DNA of 64,000 nucleotides from an uncultured delta proteobacterium (lineage in GTDB: Bacteria; Desulfobacterota; Binatia; UTPRO1): contig CAVXIU010000006.1 in NCBI GenBank assembly GCA_963761995.1, positions 3,681,684-3,745,683 of the forward strand, read 5' to 3'. The first letter of the stretch is position 1. Each line of letters starts with the position of its first letter. A model generated the notes under the pieces. It was given only the letters and a program-made list of their open reading frames with translations, was not told the origin of the DNA and searched no databases. This document shows positions 2,938 through 11,286 of the stretch, one piece after another. A program made the position numbers and the translations under genes.

Positions 2938-3531
2938 ATGGAGCTGATCCCCTACATCACCGAGGCGCGGCCGGACACCGGCCTCACCAACGGCAAGATC
3001 GGCATCTGGTGCTTCCTCGCGTCCGAGGTCATGCTCTTCGGCGCCTTCTTCGCGAGCTACATCGTGCTGCGCGTGGGCTCGGTCGAGTGGCCCCACGGCT
3101 CGTCCGTCCTGAACGTGCCGATGGCCACCGCCAACACCGTCGTGCTCATCACCTCGAGCGTCACCATGGTCATGGCCTGGGCCTCGCTCATGCGGAACGA
3201 CCTCGGCCGCTACCGCATGTTCCTTGGCGCCACGGTCGGTCTCGGCGCCGTGTTCTGCGTCATCAAGACCTTCGAGTACGGGGCGAAGTTCGAGCACCAC
3301 CTGCTGCCCCACACCAACAACTTCATCGCGCTCTACTTCATCATGACGGGCCTGCACGCCCTGCACGTGATCGGCGGCATGCTCGTCAACGGCTACTTCC
3401 TGGTCGCCGCCGGCAGCTACTGGGAGCACGACCGCGCGCTGCTCGCCAACCGGGTCGAGAACTCGGGGCTGTTCTGGCACTTCGTCGACCTGGTGTGGAT
3501 CTTCCTCTTCCCCATTCTCTATCTGCTGTAA
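2938..3531 (+). CDS. ctaE: Cytochrome c oxidase subunit III.
   Basis: 197 aa, typical subunit III helices (GIWCFLASEVMLFGAFFASY...). AGGAGG RBS. Begins 7 nt after the coxA stop. Confidence 0.9.
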   Translation: MELIPYITEARPDTGLTNGKIGIWCFLASEVMLFGAFFASYIVLRVGSVEWPHGSSVLNVPMATANTVVLITSSVTMVMAWASLMRNDLGRYRMFLGATVGLGAVFCVIKTFEYGAKFEHHLLPHTNNFIALYFIMTGLHALHVIGGMLVNGYFLVAAGSYWEHDRALLANRVENSGLFWHFVDLVWIFLFPILYLL

Positions 3532-3543
3532 GGAGAACGCTGA

Positions 3544-3864
3544 ATGGAAAGTCATGCCCTGAGCCCCGCCGACATCGACAAGCACGTCCGCGGCTACGTC
3601 ATCGTCTTCCTGACCCTGCTGGCGCTGACGGCCCTCACCGTCATGGTCTCCTATCTGCACGTCGAGGTGCACCTGGCGATCCTGGTGGCCCTGGTGATCG
3701 CCATCACCAAGGCCTCGCTGGTGGCGCTCTTCTTCATGCACCTGATTTCCGAACGGCAGGTGATCTACCTGATCATGGCCGTCACCATCGCCTTCGCGGT
3801 CGTGCTCCTGCTGTTGCCCATCCTGACCAACCTGGACCACATCAGGATCGTCGGGCACTCTTAG
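3544..3864 (+). CDS. Cytochrome c oxidase subunit IV (prokaryotic CoxD/CtaF-type).
   Basis: 106 aa with three TM helices (VIVFLTLLALTALTVMVSYLHVEVH...). AGGAG RBS. Directly follows subunit III. Confidence 0.75.
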   Translation: MESHALSPADIDKHVRGYVIVFLTLLALTALTVMVSYLHVEVHLAILVALVIAITKASLVALFFMHLISERQVIYLIMAVTIAFAVVLLLLPILTNLDHIRIVGHS

Positions 3865-3874
3865 GGCACCATGC

Positions 3875-4078
3875 ATGTCGCTGAAGAACATTCACGTCGT
3901 CTTCATCACCGCCGCGACCGCGCTCTGTCTCTTGTTCGGCGCGTGGTGCTACACGCAGTGGCAGGCGGAGGGAGGCGCGGGGATGCTCGCCGGCGCGGCG
4001 GGCTCGCTGGCGACGGCGATCGGCCTCTTGGTCTACGGCCGCTGGTTTCTCATCAAGATGAAGGACATGGACGGATGA
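3875..4078 (+). CDS. Small 2-TM membrane protein in the oxidase operon.
   Basis: 67 aa, hydrophobic, high GC3. Lies between subunit IV and the next small ORF. Confidence 0.5.
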   Translation: MSLKNIHVVFITAATALCLLFGAWCYTQWQAEGGAGMLAGAAGSLATAIGLLVYGRWFLIKMKDMDG

Positions 4079-4326
4079 CCGTGCGGTTCGGCCTCACGGT
4101 CGCGCTGGTCCTCCTGTGGACGCGCGTCGCCCTCGCCTGCCCCGTCTGCTTCGGCGATCCCAACGCGCAGATGACCAAGGGAACGGAGAGCGGCGTCTGG
4201 TTCCTGCTCGCCATCCTGGTCGGCGTCCAGGTCGGTTTCGGGATCTTCTTTCTCTACTTGCGGCGGCGCGCTCGGGACTTTCGTGATCCCATGCCGCGGC
4301 CGGTGTTCCGCCTCGTGAAAGGTTAG
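4075..4326 (+). CDS. Small secreted/membrane protein with a CPVC motif (possible metal-handling accessory).
   Basis: Its ATG at 4075 overlaps the upstream stop as ATGA. It has a signal-like N-terminus, ACPVCFGD, then one TM helix. 83 aa. Confidence 0.5.
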   Translation: MTVRFGLTVALVLLWTRVALACPVCFGDPNAQMTKGTESGVWFLLAILVGVQVGFGIFFLYLRRRARDFRDPMPRPVFRLVKG

Positions 4327-4337
4327 AAGGGCACTCC

Positions 4338-5150
4338 ATGGACATTCAGAAGTGGCTCTACCTCCCCGACCTGGCGTCCGCGCACGGCGGCGATCTCGAC
4401 CGCCTCACCTGGTACGTCCATTTGCTCATGGCCGTGCTGTTCGTCGGCTGGCTCGTGTATTTCGTCATCGCGCTCTTCAAGTTCCGCGCCTCCGCCCACC
4501 CCGTGGCCAACCCCGACGGCGTGGAGAACCACGTCTCGAGCTACATCGAGGTGGCGGTGGTCGTGGTCGAGGCGGTACTGCTGCTCGGCTTCTCGGTCCC
4601 GTTGTGGGCCGCGCGCGTCGACAACTTCCCGCCCGAGGGCACGGCGACGCGGGTCCGCGTCATCGCCCAGCAGTTCGCGTGGAACATCCACTACCCCGGC
4701 GCCGACGGCGTCTTCGGCAAGACCGACATCAAGCAGCTCGACGCCCAGGCCAACCCGATCGGCCTCGACAAGAGCGACCCGGCGGCCGCCGACGACTTCA
4801 CCACCGTGAACCAGCTCCACCTGCCGGTGAACACGCCGGCGATCGTGTATCTCTCCAGCCTCGACGTCATCCACAGCTTCGGCCTCCAGGAGATGCGCGT
4901 GAAGCAGGACGCCATCCCCGGCCTGGTCACGCCGATCTGGTTCGAGCCCACCGTCACCAGCGACGACATGAAAAAGAAGAAGGGCGACGACAAGTGGAGC
5001 TACGAGATCTCGTGCGCCCAGCTCTGCGGCCTCGGCCACTACCGCATGAAGGGCTTCCTCACGATCGACACGCCCGAGCAGTACGCGAAGTGGACCGGCG
5101 AGCAAGCGGCCGCGGCGAAGGGCTCGGGCGAAGATTCGGGCTGGGACTAG
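4338..5150 (+). CDS. ctaC: Cytochrome c oxidase subunit II (CuA). No fused cytochrome c domain, so aa3-type.
   Basis: Two N-terminal TM helices. CuA ligands are in ISCAQLCGLGHYRM and HSFGLQEM. 270 aa. Confidence 0.9.
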   Translation: MDIQKWLYLPDLASAHGGDLDRLTWYVHLLMAVLFVGWLVYFVIALFKFRASAHPVANPDGVENHVSSYIEVAVVVVEAVLLLGFSVPLWAARVDNFPPEGTATRVRVIAQQFAWNIHYPGADGVFGKTDIKQLDAQANPIGLDKSDPAAADDFTTVNQLHLPVNTPAIVYLSSLDVIHSFGLQEMRVKQDAIPGLVTPIWFEPTVTSDDMKKKKGDDKWSYEISCAQLCGLGHYRMKGFLTIDTPEQYAKWTGEQAAAAKGSGEDSGWD

Positions 5151-5210
5151 TCAAGCTGTGAGCCGTTGATACGGCGGTCGCATCTTCCCACGGCGTCGCG
5201 GTGAGCCCAC

Positions 5211-6482
5211 ATGGGTCGTCGGCTGACGCGCAGGGAGAGCGCCCTCCACGGATCGATCTTCGGCCATCTCGAGGACCTCAATGTCGAGCCGGATCAACGT
5301 CTCCAACGCGCTCTTGAGATCGCGTTCGCCGAGACATCTCCCCTCCTCGACTCGCACGTGTTCCATGCCCTGCTTCGCCTCGACACCCGCGTCGCCTGGC
5401 ACGCGAAGGTAGAGGAAGCGATCGAGCGCATCGGGCGCTCTTCATATCGCTCGTGGCTCTGGCTGCAGGGCGAGGGTCCGCGCCGCAACACCAAAGAAAC
5501 GTCATTGGAGTTGGCGACCGCGAACATCACCTTGGATCACGTACTCACGCGTGCGCTCGCGATACGCCGAGACCCACGGACGCTCGGCTCAAACGACTTC
5601 CTGCGAGCAATCGCGGAGCTCGCCGAGAAGTTTCCCCAGCCGAAGAAGGGAATCAATCTGGCGAGACCCCACACCGTCGATCTGCTGTGCGAGCTTTTGG
5701 ACGGCGAGCGCCACACCGATTTTCGCGATGCGCCGCTCACGCGGGAGGTCGTGGAGTTCTTCTCAACGGCGGGAGGTGCCGACGATTTCCAGTTGCTCCT
5801 GTCGATCGAGAGCGGCCGAATCGTCCTACGGCCGTACACCGTGCTGGGCGACTTCGTCGTACGACAGAGCGATCGTCTCGTCACACCGAACCGTGCGCTA
5901 CTGAGCGACCTAAAGGGCCTCCTGGGAGCGTTCGAGCCAGACGAAGTGGACGAACTAGAGAATCTCCTCAACGATCCTAGCGCTGGGGAGCTGCAGTTCC
6001 AGAGATTCTTCGAGCACCATCCCCACTTCTTCAGGCGCTGGGATCATCGAGAGGTCCATCCTCACGTCGTCCTACAGCGCGAAACAGGCAATTTGATCCC
6101 TGATTTCCTCTTGACCGATCGCGAAGCCCAGAAGGCCGCCATCGTCGAATTGAAATTGCCGACTACGATTGTCCGGCGGCAGCAAAACCGCGATCGTTTC
6201 GCAACCTCCGTCATCGAGGCGCGGGCGCAGCTGCTGCGCTACCGGGATTGGTTCGAAGATCCCGGCAACCGACAACGGCTGTTACCGCAACTCGGAATGG
6301 AGGTCTTTCGGCCACGACTGGCCGTCATCATCGGTCGATCGAGCGACTTCGTCGACGCCATCGATCGCCAGCGTCTCGCATCGGACAATCCCGACATCGA
6401 GGTCGTCACGTATGACGAGATACTGACCTATGCGAAGCGGCGCCGCGTGCTACTGGAGAACGTGCGCAGAGACACGCCCTAG
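5211..6482 (+). CDS. RecB-like PD-(D/E)xK nuclease (Shedu/DUF4263-like candidate defence nuclease) with an uncharacterised N-terminal domain.
   Basis: 423 aa. C-terminal motifs: IPDFLL (D), IVELK (ExK) and QLLRY (QxxxY). The gene is ~55-60% GC against ~70% in the flanks. Confidence 0.55.
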   Translation: MGRRLTRRESALHGSIFGHLEDLNVEPDQRLQRALEIAFAETSPLLDSHVFHALLRLDTRVAWHAKVEEAIERIGRSSYRSWLWLQGEGPRRNTKETSLELATANITLDHVLTRALAIRRDPRTLGSNDFLRAIAELAEKFPQPKKGINLARPHTVDLLCELLDGERHTDFRDAPLTREVVEFFSTAGGADDFQLLLSIESGRIVLRPYTVLGDFVVRQSDRLVTPNRALLSDLKGLLGAFEPDEVDELENLLNDPSAGELQFQRFFEHHPHFFRRWDHREVHPHVVLQRETGNLIPDFLLTDREAQKAAIVELKLPTTIVRRQQNRDRFATSVIEARAQLLRYRDWFEDPGNRQRLLPQLGMEVFRPRLAVIIGRSSDFVDAIDRQRLASDNPDIEVVTYDEILTYAKRRRVLLENVRRDTP

Positions 6483-6898
6483 TTGCGCGGCGCGAGCCTG
6501 ATCTCTCGGCGGAACTCCCGAAGCAGCGCCGCGCCATCCTCGCCGGCGAAGAGGCGCGCGACGAACTCGGCCCAGCGGAGCGCCGGGCGCATGGTGATGC
6601 GGAGACGGACCGGCTGCTCCGTCGGGTTCCAGGCGAGATGCGGCGTCCCGGGCGGAACGACCACCGTATCGCCGGGAGCGGCGGTCGTCTCGGTATCCCC
6701 GATCTGGAACGCCGCCCTGCCCTCCAGGATCTCGTAGCGCTCCTCCATCTCCGGATGCAGGTGCGCGGCGGCGCGGCGGCCGGGGCGCGTCCAGGTGCTG
6801 TGCATCACCAGCAGCGCGGGGCTCTGGTGCTCGAAGACGATCTGCTCACCGGTGCGCGGGTTCTCGATCATCGGTCCGGAGCCCTTTGCCTGTTCCAT
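6479..6898 (-). CDS. Cupin domain protein.
   Basis: Beta-barrel cupin signature (IVFEH..., HLHPEMEERYEILEGRAAF, PPGTPH). The longer ORF reaching 7450 is a GC-rich overrun. The start could instead be 6871. Confidence 0.7.
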   Translation of the reverse strand: MEQAKGSGPMIENPRTGEQIVFEHQSPALLVMHSTWTRPGRRAAAHLHPEMEERYEILEGRAAFQIGDTETTAAPGDTVVVPPGTPHLAWNPTEQPVRLRITMRPALRWAEFVARLFAGEDGAALLREFRREIRLAPRN

Positions 6899-6961
6899 TC
6901 CCCGTCCTGGATCAAGCGGCCTCCTTGACGGAGCGGGGTCGCGGGGCGTAGCCAGCCCGCT

Positions 6962-7423
6962 GTGCTCTCCCTGCTCGTTCACGCCGCGCTCGGCGCGCTC
7001 ACCGTCTGGATCTTCTTCCGTTTGAATGCCCACCTCTACCGGAACGACTGGCCGGGCTCCGGGGCCACGCCGCTCGAGGGCCTCTACTACCTGCTCGCGA
7101 TCGTGTCGGTGGTCGCCGGCTGGTACTTCAACGTGCGCTACGTCTTCGGCTACCCCGCCGAGTACAGCTGGACGCACTTCACCGCGATGCTCTTCGCCAA
7201 CCCGGCGGCGGGGTCGGTCGGGCAGGACATGATCATCACCAACGTGCTGCTGTTCCCGCTCTGGACGATGATCGACGGGCCGCGGCGCGGCCTCCGCGGC
7301 ACCTGGATCTACTTCGTGATGAGCCTGTTCACGAGCTTCAGCTTCGCGATGGGCATGTATCTCGCCGCGCAGGAGCGGCAGGTGCGCTGGCTCGCGGCGC
7401 GGGGGTCCGATTCCCGACCGTGA
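6962..7423 (+). CDS. Hypothetical 4-TM membrane protein.
   Basis: Starts at GTG. 153 aa with four hydrophobic helices and good GC3. Confidence 0.5.
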   Translation: MLSLLVHAALGALTVWIFFRLNAHLYRNDWPGSGATPLEGLYYLLAIVSVVAGWYFNVRYVFGYPAEYSWTHFTAMLFANPAAGSVGQDMIITNVLLFPLWTMIDGPRRGLRGTWIYFVMSLFTSFSFAMGMYLAAQERQVRWLAARGSDSRP

Positions 7424-9026
7424 CGTCATCGTCGTCGGCGCCGGCCACAACGGCCTCGCCGCGACGGCCCTCCTCGCGGCGCGTGGGCTCCGCGTGCTCT
7501 GCCTCGAGAAGAACGCCTACGTCGGCGGCATGGCGGGGACGCGCGAGATCCTGACCGGCTGCCGGAACGACGTCGGCGCGAGCCTGCTCTTCCCGCTCGC
7601 CAAGGGCGTGGCCGAGGAGCTCGAGCTCGCCCGCTACGGCGTCGAGCTCATCGACCTGCCGATCATGGCGTCGAACCTGAACTCGCCGACCTCGCCGCCC
7701 GCGATCTTCTACGCCAACCCGCTCCGCATGGCGCTCTACGTGCTCCGCCACTTCGGCGTGCGCGCCATGGCGGGCTTCGTGCGCCTGATGGCGTTCTGCA
7801 AGTACCCGGCGAGCGTCATGGACCGCTTCACGCCGCGAAGCGTGCCGCGCACGCTCGCCGAGCTGCTGGCCGCGGCACCCGACGACGCGCAAGCGCCGGC
7901 AGCTCGAGCTGGCGTTCACCGGCAGCGCGATGGACCTGATCGACCGCTTCCTGCCCGACCGGCGGCGGCATCGGACGCTCCGCGCACTGGTCGCCTTCGC
8001 CGCCGTGCAATCGACCTACAAGGGACCGTTCACGCCCGGAAGCGCGCTCTGCCTCGTCTACACCTTCGCGCAGAACGAGGGCGGCGGCCTCATGCGGCGG
8101 GTGAAGGGCGGCATGGGCTCGTTGTCCGAGGCGCTCGCGCGCTCGATCGCCGAGAAGGGCGGCGAGGTGCGGCTCGAAGTCGCCCGTCAGGCGCGTGCTG
8201 ATCGAGGACGGGCATGCGGTGGGCGTCGAGCTCCGCGACGGCAGCGCGTCTGACCGCACGCGCGGTGCTCTCCAACCTCGACAAGCCGGCGACCTTCTTC
8301 GGCCTGGTCGGGCGCGAGCACCTCGACGCCGCGACCATCGATCTCATCGAGCGCGTCGAGCAGCGCGGCGCCTACGTACACCTGCTCTTCAAGCTGAAGC
8401 GTCTGCCGCGCTACGGCCCGCCCTTCGAGCACCTGAACGCCGACCCGCGGACGCGCTTCAACACGACGCTGGTCCCCGACCCCGAGCTGCAACAGGCGAG
8501 CTACGAGGCCTGCCGGCGCGGCGAGGTGCCGGAGCACCCGCCGGTCGGGATGCAGATCCCGACGGTGATGGATCCGAGCCTCGCACCCGCAGGCTTCCAC
8601 ATCGCGACCACCTACGGCTTCTTCTTCCCCTGCGAGGCGCCGAAGGAGGAGCGCGGGCGGCTCCGCGACGAAATGGCCGAGCGCATCCTCGACCGCCTCT
8701 CCGAGTTCCTCCCCGACCTCCGCGACTGCATCGTCGAGCGCGCGGTCTTCTCGTCGGAGCACTTCGCGACCATGCAGGGGGCGACGAACGGCGACTTCAC
8801 GCACGGGCTGATCCATCCGGAGCAGATGATCGGCGGACGGCTCCTGGTACCGGGCTCGGCGCACGCGACGCCGATCGCGGGGCTGTATCTCTGCGGCGCG
8901 TCCTGCCATCCGGGTCCGGGCGTGACGTTCCTGCCGGGGTACGGCGCCGCCTACGAGGTGGCGGAGGCGTTGGCGCGCCCGCCGCGCGCGGCGGAAGAAT
9001 CGGTCACTCGGGCGGCGGCGGTGTAG
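7419..9026 (+). pseudogene. Phytoene desaturase family (CrtI-like) FAD oxidoreductase, disrupted by at least 3 frameshifts and lacking an in-frame start codon.
   Basis: The dinucleotide-binding motif DVIVVGAGHNGLAATALLAARG is in frame 0 with no ATG/GTG/TTG upstream. The CrtI-like sequence continues in frame 1 (7930-8190), then frame 2 (~8195-8240), then frame 0 (8214-9026). Confidence 0.6.
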
Positions 9027-10498: not shown

Positions 10499-11286
10499 GC
10501 GATCAGCCTGCGCTCCACCCAGCGGACCGCGAGCCCGTAGGTCGCCGCCAGCACGAGCAGCAGGACGGCGACGTGCGCGAGGCTGGCGACGCCGACGGTG
10601 CCGGTGACGCAGGCCCGGCTGAGCGCGACCGCGTGGGTGAGCGGCAGGCACCAGGCGGCCGCCTGCGCCCACGCCGGCAGGCTCGCGAGCGGGAAGAAGA
10701 TGCCGGAGAGGAAGTACATCACCGAGATGACGAGGGTGAAGTAGTAGGTGAAGAAGTCGTAGGCGCGGGCGCGCGACGCCACCGCGAGGCCCATGCTGGC
10801 GAAGACGAGACCGATCAGGAGGGCGACCGCGGGGAGCAGCACCGCCCACCCGCTCCGCACCAGGCCGGCGCCGGTCGCGACCAGCAGCACGGCGGTGCCG
10901 GAGAGCGTCGCCTTGGAGGCCGCCCAGAGCGCGTCGCCGGCGACGATCTCGCGGATGCCGAGGGGCGTCGCCAGGATCGCGTCGTAGGTCTTCTGCTCGG
11001 TCATGCGGGTGAACGAGCCGAAGGTGGCCTCGAAGCTCGCCGCGTTCATCGCCGCCGAGGCGAGGATCCCGGGCGCCAGGAACTGCGCGTACGTCCCGCC
11101 CGCGCCGCTCGGGTCGATGTCGACGAAGCGGCCGAGCCCGTAGCCGATGGCGAGCAGCGACAGGATGGGCTCGCCGAGCGCGCCGACGAGCGACGCTTTG
11201 TAGTACTTCCGCCAGCTCTCCATGTCGCGGCGCCAGACGCGGAGCGCGCCGCCGACGAAACCGATGGGAACGGTGACCGTGCTCAC
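10495..11286 (-). CDS. ABC-2 type transporter permease.
   Basis: Six TM helices. Its GTG start overlaps the ATPase stop as GTGA. The start could instead be at 11223. Confidence 0.8.
   Translation of the reverse strand: MSTVTVPIGFVGGALRVWRRDMESWRKYYKASLVGALGEPILSLLAIGYGLGRFVDIDPSGAGGTYAQFLAPGILASAAMNAASFEATFGSFTRMTEQKTYDAILATPLGIREIVAGDALWAASKATLSGTAVLLVATGAGLVRSGWAVLLPAVALLIGLVFASMGLAVASRARAYDFFTYYFTLVISVMYFLSGIFFPLASLPAWAQAAAWCLPLTHAVALSRACVTGTVGVASLAHVAVLLLVLAATYGLAVRWVERRLIA

Follow-up and report, generated by a model that had tools for sequence, protein, structure and literature searches.

A predicted type 1 Shedu anti-phage nuclease encoded by a single gene at a variable site behind the cytochrome oxidase operon of an uncultured delta proteobacterium

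The locus analyzed here raises the question of what kind of protein is encoded by a gene of atypically low GC content that lies between the cytochrome oxidase operon and a cupin gene of an uncultured delta proteobacterium, and how this gene came to be there. An earlier note, made from the raw sequence of a 64-kb stretch of DNA (hereinafter the window), described the gene as an inserted low-GC islet coding for a RecB-like PD-(D/E)xK nuclease that resembles Shedu (DUF4263), a single-gene anti-phage system. Our analysis leads to a closely similar view: most probably, the gene product is a Shedu (SduA) protein of type 1, an anti-phage nuclease of the single-gene kind, and the gene was horizontally acquired into a variable spot between coxB and the cupin gene. 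The uninterrupted open reading frame (ORF), denoted sduA below, is located exactly where the note had placed it, at 5211..6482 of the plus strand, starts with ATG and encodes 423 aa. The flanking genes likewise are those that had been named, a cytochrome oxidase operon upstream and a convergent Cupin_2 gene downstream. The operon encodes COX1 (1156-2931), COX3 (2938-3531), COX4_pro (3544-3864), an unplaced 151-aa protein (3871-4326) and COX2; the last gene, coxB (4338..5150, plus strand; Pfam COX2, 33 bits), forms the left border of the insertion site and, as direct reading of the sequence indicates, is separated from sduA by a spacer of 60 bp (5151..5210). A 60-bp gap had been assigned to the downstream side of the gene as well, but there the stop codons overlap and no gap exists. 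The convergent abutment on the cupin gene, in contrast, is as had been described: both stop codons use one CTAG (6479..6482), the right border of the insertion, with the sduA stop TAG at 6480-6482 on the plus strand and the cupin stop TAG at 6479-6481 on the minus strand. The 323-aa "cupin" ORF (6479..7450) is probably over-extended; because homology to the related loci L001, L014 and L015 is confined to 6479..6898 (minus strand; Cupin_2, 51.9 bits), the real cupin gene probably encodes 139 aa. An oxidoreductase gene nearby, at 7494-9026, looks frameshifted.

Assignment of the protein to the Shedu family is based primarily on its C-terminal part (aa 246-423; 5946..6479, plus strand), for which a Pfam match, a profile match to PDB entries and a fold match all indicate a DUF4263/SduA_C nuclease domain of the PD-(D/E)xK type. 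The Pfam family PF14082 (SduA_C/DUF4263) matches aa 260-405 (5988-6425, plus strand) with 60.7 bits, compared to the cut-off of 27, and is covered from position 4 to position 159 of 159; 23 SduA models of PADLOC also match, the best at 7.4e-17 and all via the C-terminal part, so that both profile searches that had been proposed as a check are positive. A family profile built from the alignment of 53 full-length relatives matched Shedu entries only among PDB structures (8ti8, 8ti9 and 8tia). The Shedu/DUF4263 identity that the note had suggested is therefore confirmed by Pfam, by PADLOC and by the matches to 8ti8 and 8ti9, and standard defense-finder pipelines would call this gene. The designation "RecB-like" turned out to be loose: the domain belongs to the DUF4263 family of PD-(D/E)xK nucleases, and none of the RecB-family models was matched by the 423-aa protein. 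An NCBIfam search of the same protein yielded no match. A search of PDB with the single sequence produced a match to the helix-turn-helix protein Aca2 at aa 66-124 (E 0.22), which we rejected as chance-level noise.

The three motifs that had been picked out from the translation, IPDFLL, IVELK and QLLRY, were all found, in the order claimed, at aa 296-301, 311-315 and 340-344, respectively. In the profile alignment with SduA of Bacillus cereus, D298 falls on "DF", E313-x-K315 on "EIK" and Q340 on "TQVLTY", and the substituted position of the E-to-A mutant chain 8ti9 falls on the same column as E313. Among the 53 homologs, E260, D298, K315, Q340 and Y344 are invariant, whereas only E and D occur at position 313. 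The motifs of the B. cereus protein have been defined as E204 (I), D249 (II), E264/K266 (III) and Q295 (IV), of which D249 and E264 are needed for phage defense (Gu et al., bioRxiv 10.1101/2023.08.10.552793). By alignment with these residues, motif II (PDF) of the protein described here includes D298 (codon 6102..6104, plus strand, as for all codons given here), which corresponds to D249; motif III (ExK) is E313-L314-K315 (6147..6155), corresponding to E264/K266; and motif IV (QLLRY) extends from Q340, the counterpart of Q295, to Y344 (6228..6242). E260 (5988..5990) is likely to be the motif I residue equivalent to E204, an assignment made by position and by the start of the Pfam match, with the PDB profile alignment excluding E260. 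The PD-(D/E)xK active site predicted in this way is complete, consisting of E260, D298, E313, K315 and Q340.

An AlphaFold2 model that we built on the 53-sequence alignment has a mean pLDDT of 78.5 (about 54-85 in the nuclease domain), and its best PDB match in a Foldseek search is the nuclease domain of the B. cereus Shedu protein, chain 8ti9_C (E 4e-5, probability 1.00, TM 0.61 on target), followed by 8ti9_B (E 8e-5), with TM values on target in the range of 0.54-0.61. Thus, on sequence and predicted-fold criteria, the 423-aa protein is a member of the Shedu family. In the layout denoted type I or type 1, a long N-terminal region precedes the C-terminal DUF4263 domain (bioRxiv 10.1101/2023.08.10.552793; 10.1101/2023.08.10.552762). 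With 245-259 aa ahead of the Pfam match, conserved over the full length in at least 50 homologs, the protein is a predicted type 1 Shedu; it shares the type I architecture, with a family-specific N-terminal region, with SduA of Escherichia coli, and in length it deviates little from the mean of type I proteins, 386 aa (Loeff et al., bioRxiv 10.1101/2023.08.10.552762). The best match by both sequence profile and fold is SduA of B. cereus B4264 (PDB 8ti8, 8ti9, 8tia), which has been classified as "type 1A" (Gu et al., bioRxiv 10.1101/2023.08.10.552793). The two proteins share the C-terminal DUF4263 PD-(D/E)xK domain with motifs I-IV, the presence of an N-terminal regulatory region and the single-gene organization, but the identity between the nuclease domains is only 14-18%, and the N-terminal regions show no detectable similarity: that of the B. 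cereus protein is sPC4/Whirly-like whereas the one modeled here is an all-helical repeat of 2 x 4 helices followed by a small beta unit. Neither a Whirly nor a PC4 structure appears among the PDB fold matches of the N-terminal model. Given that type 1A is characterized by an sPC4/Whirly N-terminal domain, the eight helices and small beta unit predicted instead place the protein outside type 1A.

The base composition of sduA differs from that of the surrounding DNA. The GC content of the gene is 61.2% (62.9% in the part encoding the N-terminal region and 58.8% in the C-terminal part) compared to the window mean of 70.4%, and of all 1272-bp stretches in the 64 kb, that of sduA has the least GC (0.24th percentile). 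The low-GC islet that had been noticed in a background of about 70% GC thus stands, although the value for the gene itself is higher than the 55-60% originally given. The adjoining cox genes are also relatively GC-poor (61-66%), but their GC content is lowered by the first and second codon positions, so GC3 is the better measure; it is 0.741 in sduA, 0.93-0.97 in the cox genes and 0.885 in the gene for the ABC1 kinase, with a mean of 0.877 (sd 0.066) over the plausible coding ORFs of the window. The windowed calculation of GC content and codon usage that had been suggested therefore finds both values atypical (0.612 for GC; 0.74 against about 0.88 for GC3), and sduA is compositionally foreign. 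This case confirms that a reading of motifs and composition in raw sequence can correctly flag a defense gene.

The comparison with related genomes suggests that sduA is an addition to an otherwise conserved gene order. Among 185,579 species genomes, a relative of the cupin was found only in L001, a metagenome-assembled genome titled "uncultured delta proteobacterium". To the left of the site, L001 contains the genes for a CarboxypepD_reg-domain protein, COX1, COX3, COX4, the 151-aa protein and COX2, at 62-90% identity, and to the right, those for the cupin (71% identity) and ABC1 (81%), followed by the next gene. There is no Shedu gene in L001, where COX2 and cupin genes are 161 bp apart and the spacer includes, between the cupin stop and coxB, a GC-rich hairpin, GGGGGTC-TTTT-GACCCCC. 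A metagenome scan with COX2 yielded 80 coxB loci, none of which (0/80) contains a Shedu relative. The coxB product of the window is 78-85% identical to COX2 of L001 and of L012-L017. The interval is empty in L001, in L014 (COX2, about 45 bp, cupin, ABC1) and in L012 (COX2, 40 bp, ABC1), whereas L013, L015 and L017 carry other cargo, a two-ORF module that encodes a 75-aa protein and a nucleotidyltransferase-like protein of about 182 aa; the latter shows sub-threshold matches only, to DUF6036 (20.2 bits) and AbiEii (17.8 bits), and has no PADLOC match. The presence of empty or alternatively occupied intervals makes the site behind coxB a variable hotspot in this lineage, in which Shedu is seen in the window genome only. 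Relative to L001 and L014, the insertion amounts to essentially one ORF.

Thus, L001 and all the close relatives from metagenomes lack the gene between coxB and the cupin or ABC1 gene. This is the comparison by which the note had proposed to examine its claim of insertion, and the absence, together with the atypical GC3, argues for an acquired gene; neither conserved synteny nor native GC content, the findings that would have spoken against acquisition, was seen. Gain in this genome, as opposed to loss elsewhere, is suggested by the composition of sduA and by its uniqueness among the seven related loci rather than by phylogeny. No trace of the mechanism of transfer was found: there are no mobility genes or recombinase next to sduA; the flanks contain only short, chance-level repeats, direct or inverted, and no meaningful target-site duplications; and the window encompasses no tRNA genes and no meaningful Rfam elements. 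The left spacer aligns with that of L001 too weakly for the exact point of insertion to be placed. Phage records contain no relative of the protein, and plasmid records contain only remote matches to the C-terminal domain, so that no transfer vector was identified. What can be recognized is one well-delimited example of a single-gene Shedu that forms a clean insertion behind a core respiratory operon, and this makes the interval between coxB and the cupin or ABC1 gene in this soil lineage a small, defined hotspot for which both empty-site and alternative-cargo comparators are available.

An acquired Shedu gene could, in principle, be silent or decaying, that is, the remnant of an old transfer. 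Several features of the locus fit this scenario. A scan for promoters and terminators detected neither a sigma-70-like promoter nor a terminator in the 60-bp spacer (5151-5210), nor a terminator between the convergent sduA and cupin genes, the stop codons of which overlap; terminator-like matches occur only inside sduA (5737-5754), at chance frequency. Furthermore, sduA, at 61% GC, exceeds all the homologs examined (47-57%), which points to amelioration over a long residence, and the adjacent oxidoreductase gene appears to be frameshifted. However, sduA is of complete length (423 aa compared to 390-430 aa in the relatives), without frameshift or stop; all residues that are invariant in the family, including the catalytic ones, are retained; and a plausible Shine-Dalgarno sequence, GGTGAG (5200-5205), is located 5 nt ahead of the ATG. 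Moreover, with no promoter or terminator in the spacer, read-through from the cox operon into sduA is possible and could supply transcription. Decay or silence of the gene therefore appears unlikely, and an intact, acquired Shedu gene remains the preferred interpretation.

The distribution of homologs is compatible with this interpretation. A search of 5.8 billion proteins retrieved at least 120 relatives, all of which contain PF14082; most of these are 390-430 aa long and align over 93-98% of the query with 38-69% identity. Those that are named in their source carry the name [quoted passage not shown], and the named hits span Binatia, Planctomycetota, Phycisphaerae and Nitrososphaera. In the eight homolog loci that we read, there is no common neighbor, which, along with the insertion of a single ORF described above, bears out the single-gene organization that had been claimed. 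Most of the homologs reside among housekeeping genes rather than in recognizable defense islands, next to genes for IspG/GcpE, a peptidase M28, an amidase or an acetyl-CoA synthetase-type protein (one locus each); the homolog beside the amidase gene overlaps it tail to tail, as sduA does with the cupin gene. In two loci, defense-related neighbors are present: the homolog in L007 has KwaA/KwaB (Kiwa), a resolvase gene and a PIN gene as neighbors, and the one in L006 is near a TIR_2 gene. In 5 of the 8 loci, the GC content of the homolog is 9-16 points below that of the flanks (for instance, 0.53 vs 0.67 and 0.48 vs 0.64). Scattered loci, low GC content and the lack of a shared neighbor are what is seen with a mobile accessory gene that stands alone, which argues both against an obligate partner and against a core repair role.

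The latter role has to be considered because the restriction-endonuclease fold is also found in housekeeping and repair nucleases, so that the protein might be an EndoMS/NucS-like or VRR-NUC-like enzyme without a role in defense. EndoMS has been identified as the closest non-Shedu structural relative of the B. cereus Shedu protein (bioRxiv 10.1101/2023.08.10.552793), weak VRR_NUC matches (best E 0.005) were obtained for 12 of the 53 homologs, and the predominance of housekeeping genes around the homologs is in line with such a role. These VRR_NUC matches are, however, far below any cut-off, whereas SduA_C is matched above threshold in each of the 53 homologs; and the absence from syntenic relatives, the foreign composition and the scatter across loci and phyla, with some homologs located beside Kiwa or TIR genes, are unlike a core repair gene. 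Hence we regard a repair function as quite improbable compared to that of a Shedu defense nuclease. There is equally little to suggest that sduA belongs to a multi-gene system with a partner encoded nearby, as in KELShedu, a two-component Shedu variant (bioRxiv 10.1101/2025.09.13.674623): the candidate, the unplaced 151-aa ORF (3871-4326) of the upstream operon, is also conserved in the cox operons of Shedu-lacking relatives and accordingly belongs to the oxidase operon, no neighbor is common to the eight homolog loci, and the insertion compared to L001 and L014 is essentially a single ORF.

The proposed mechanism of this predicted type 1 Shedu protein follows that of the two characterized systems. 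The C-terminal DUF4263 PD-(D/E)xK domain would nick or cut invading DNA, and the same domain probably would mediate assembly of the protein into a homotetramer. The N-terminal region of 245 aa probably holds the nuclease back and would set it free when it senses an infection-related cue. We infer the anti-phage activity, the oligomeric state and the autoinhibition by the N-terminal domain from comparison with the known proteins. For the B. cereus Shedu, a motif II loop and a switch between tetramer and octamer have been described, and single-stranded nucleic acid has been proposed as the cue (bioRxiv 10.1101/2023.08.10.552793). In SduA of E. coli, a clamp formed by the N-terminal domains recognizes free DNA ends (bioRxiv 10.1101/2023.08.10.552762). 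This mode of sensing cannot be assumed here because the matches to the PADLOC SduA models and to PDB sequences miss the N-terminal 215 aa, with no detectable similarity upstream of about aa 216.

The question of wider interest, then, is what the N-terminal region senses. The N-terminal 260 aa, which the earlier note had left unplaced, proved to be a conserved region, predicted to function as a sensor, that is specific to one Shedu subfamily; within this subfamily, the first 260 aa are conserved along their whole length in the alignment of 53 homologs. The AlphaFold models predict a helical domain at aa 12-190 (5244..5780, plus strand) that consists of eight helices arranged as two repeats of four. 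Two independent models agree on the helices of the first repeat (aa 16-22, 29-41, 47-56 and 65-75) and of the second (aa 106-118, 127-140, 154-164 and 175-185), with pLDDT values mostly in the range of 86-97. When a profile of aa 1-245 was searched with HMMER against 1.84 billion cluster representatives (50% identity), only 107 proteins were detected, many of which are short fragments and the rest mostly about 390-430 aa long; ten matches of atypical length (320-780 aa) were scanned, and SduA_C is present in all ten. Within this set of 107 clusters from 1.84 billion proteins, the predicted helical domain occurs solely fused to SduA_C. A Pfam scan of the 53 family members detected nothing consistent in the N-terminal region, and the sole match of the N-terminal profile to PDB sequences, to the PHO85 cyclin (E 0.21), was rejected.

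Comparison of predicted structures yields a tentative lead, namely that the helical domain is a Clp-N-like double repeat. With the N-terminal model, a single high-probability PDB fold match was obtained, to ClpC1 in its N-terminal domain (6pbs_I; E 0.037, probability 0.93, TM 0.45 on target), and the same match is obtained with the full-length model. In hhalign comparisons with four Clp N-domains, the sequences of which were entered by hand, both repeats align in register with P values of 2.5e-4 to 8e-4, and the two halves of the helical domain align to each other (P 0.007). The likeness to the N-domains of ClpC, ClpA and ClpB consists in the eight helices forming two four-helix repeats; the Shedu domain differs in having a long insert between the repeats (aa 76-105). 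None of the 53 members is matched by Pfam Clp_N at E <= 1, and there are no Clp proteins among the 107 HMMER matches of the aa 1-245 profile. The scores for the Clp likeness fall below conventional significance, and given that all the supporting tests are weak, we consider it a resemblance rather than membership.

Clp N-domains serve as docking sites for adaptor proteins, peptides and phospho-arginine tags. A Clp-N-like module in a Shedu protein would, speculatively, point to a protein or peptide ligand as the cue and hence to protein-triggered activation. We think it rather doubtful, but worth mention, that the N-terminal domain is a genuine Clp-N-type module and that this subfamily is switched on by a phage protein or a stress-marked protein, as opposed to DNA ends or single-stranded nucleic acid; if true, this would be a protein-sensing Shedu. 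A literature search retrieved no paper that combines Shedu, DUF4263 and Clp, and Gu et al. (bioRxiv 10.1101/2023.08.10.552793), in the main text and in the part of the supplement considered here, make no mention of such a sensor; within that part, the domain may or may not be represented among the 59 unnamed clusters of these authors, N1-N59.

The helical domain is connected to the nuclease by a small beta unit and linker (aa 191-245; 5781..5945, plus strand), in which the AlphaFold models contain strands at aa 194-200, 203-218 and 224-232, with a moderate pLDDT of 60-75, and which includes the invariant D192 and the conserved Q194 and R207. This segment of about 50 aa also matches Shedu proteins with other N-termini (P0185, P0187, P0208 and P0178), among them methyltransferase-fused and Sua5-fused ones, suggesting that the beta unit probably extends the nuclease core and does not belong to the sensor.

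At the variable coxB-downstream site, where the window has the Shedu gene, three related metagenomic contigs, L015 (4965-5716), L017 (5003-5763) and L013 (3898-4125), have a different two-ORF module. The module encodes a 75-aa protein and a nucleotidyltransferase-like protein of approximately 182 aa; the latter matches DUF6036, AbiEii and DUF2204 only below threshold and yielded no match in PADLOC. These two proteins may constitute a toxin-antitoxin or abortive-infection pair. A fourth contig, L016 (2970-4469), agrees with L017 as far as the middle of the nucleotidyltransferase-like ORF and then continues into an unrelated region with a DnaN-like beta clamp, a switch that probably results from chimeric assembly or rearrangement.

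The 323-aa 'cupin' ORF to the right of the Shedu gene (6479-7450, minus strand) is over-extended: both the Cupin_2 match and the homology to relatives are confined to its final ~139 aa. The true cupin gene probably spans 6479-6898 on the minus strand; what reads as an Arg/Pro-rich N-terminal 'extension' comes from the strand opposite a genuine plus-strand gene. Divergently from the cupin, the window encodes a DUF2834 membrane protein (6962-7423, plus strand; 79.4 bits), which is not present in the syntenic L001, L014 and L015 loci, where the kinase gene ABC1 directly follows the cupin. Next comes a CrtI/amine-oxidase-like FAD oxidoreductase (7494-9026, plus strand; weak NAD_binding_8 and Amino_oxidase matches) whose coding sequence is seemingly broken into pieces in three or more reading frames (7494-8201, 7930-8253 and 8214-9026), representing either a pseudogene or sequencing frameshifts. 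Given that this gene is likewise missing from the syntenic relatives, the surroundings of the cupin are variable on both sides. Neither tRNA nor tmRNA genes occur anywhere in the 64 kb of the window, and no Rfam family reaches its gathering threshold there.

Within the cox operon, a 151-aa ORF without a Pfam match (3871-4326, plus strand) lies between COX4_pro and COX2 and has a GC3 of only 0.70. Many relatives nevertheless retain this ORF at the equivalent place in their cox operons, with 35-79% identity, so it probably encodes an oxidase-operon component that is still uncharacterised.

Neither side of the Shedu gene carries an equivalent of the GGGGGTC-TTTT-GACCCCC hairpin (10500-10520, minus-strand reading) that separates the convergent coxB and cupin genes at the empty site of L001, the syntenic sister MAG; this hairpin is probably a bidirectional terminator.
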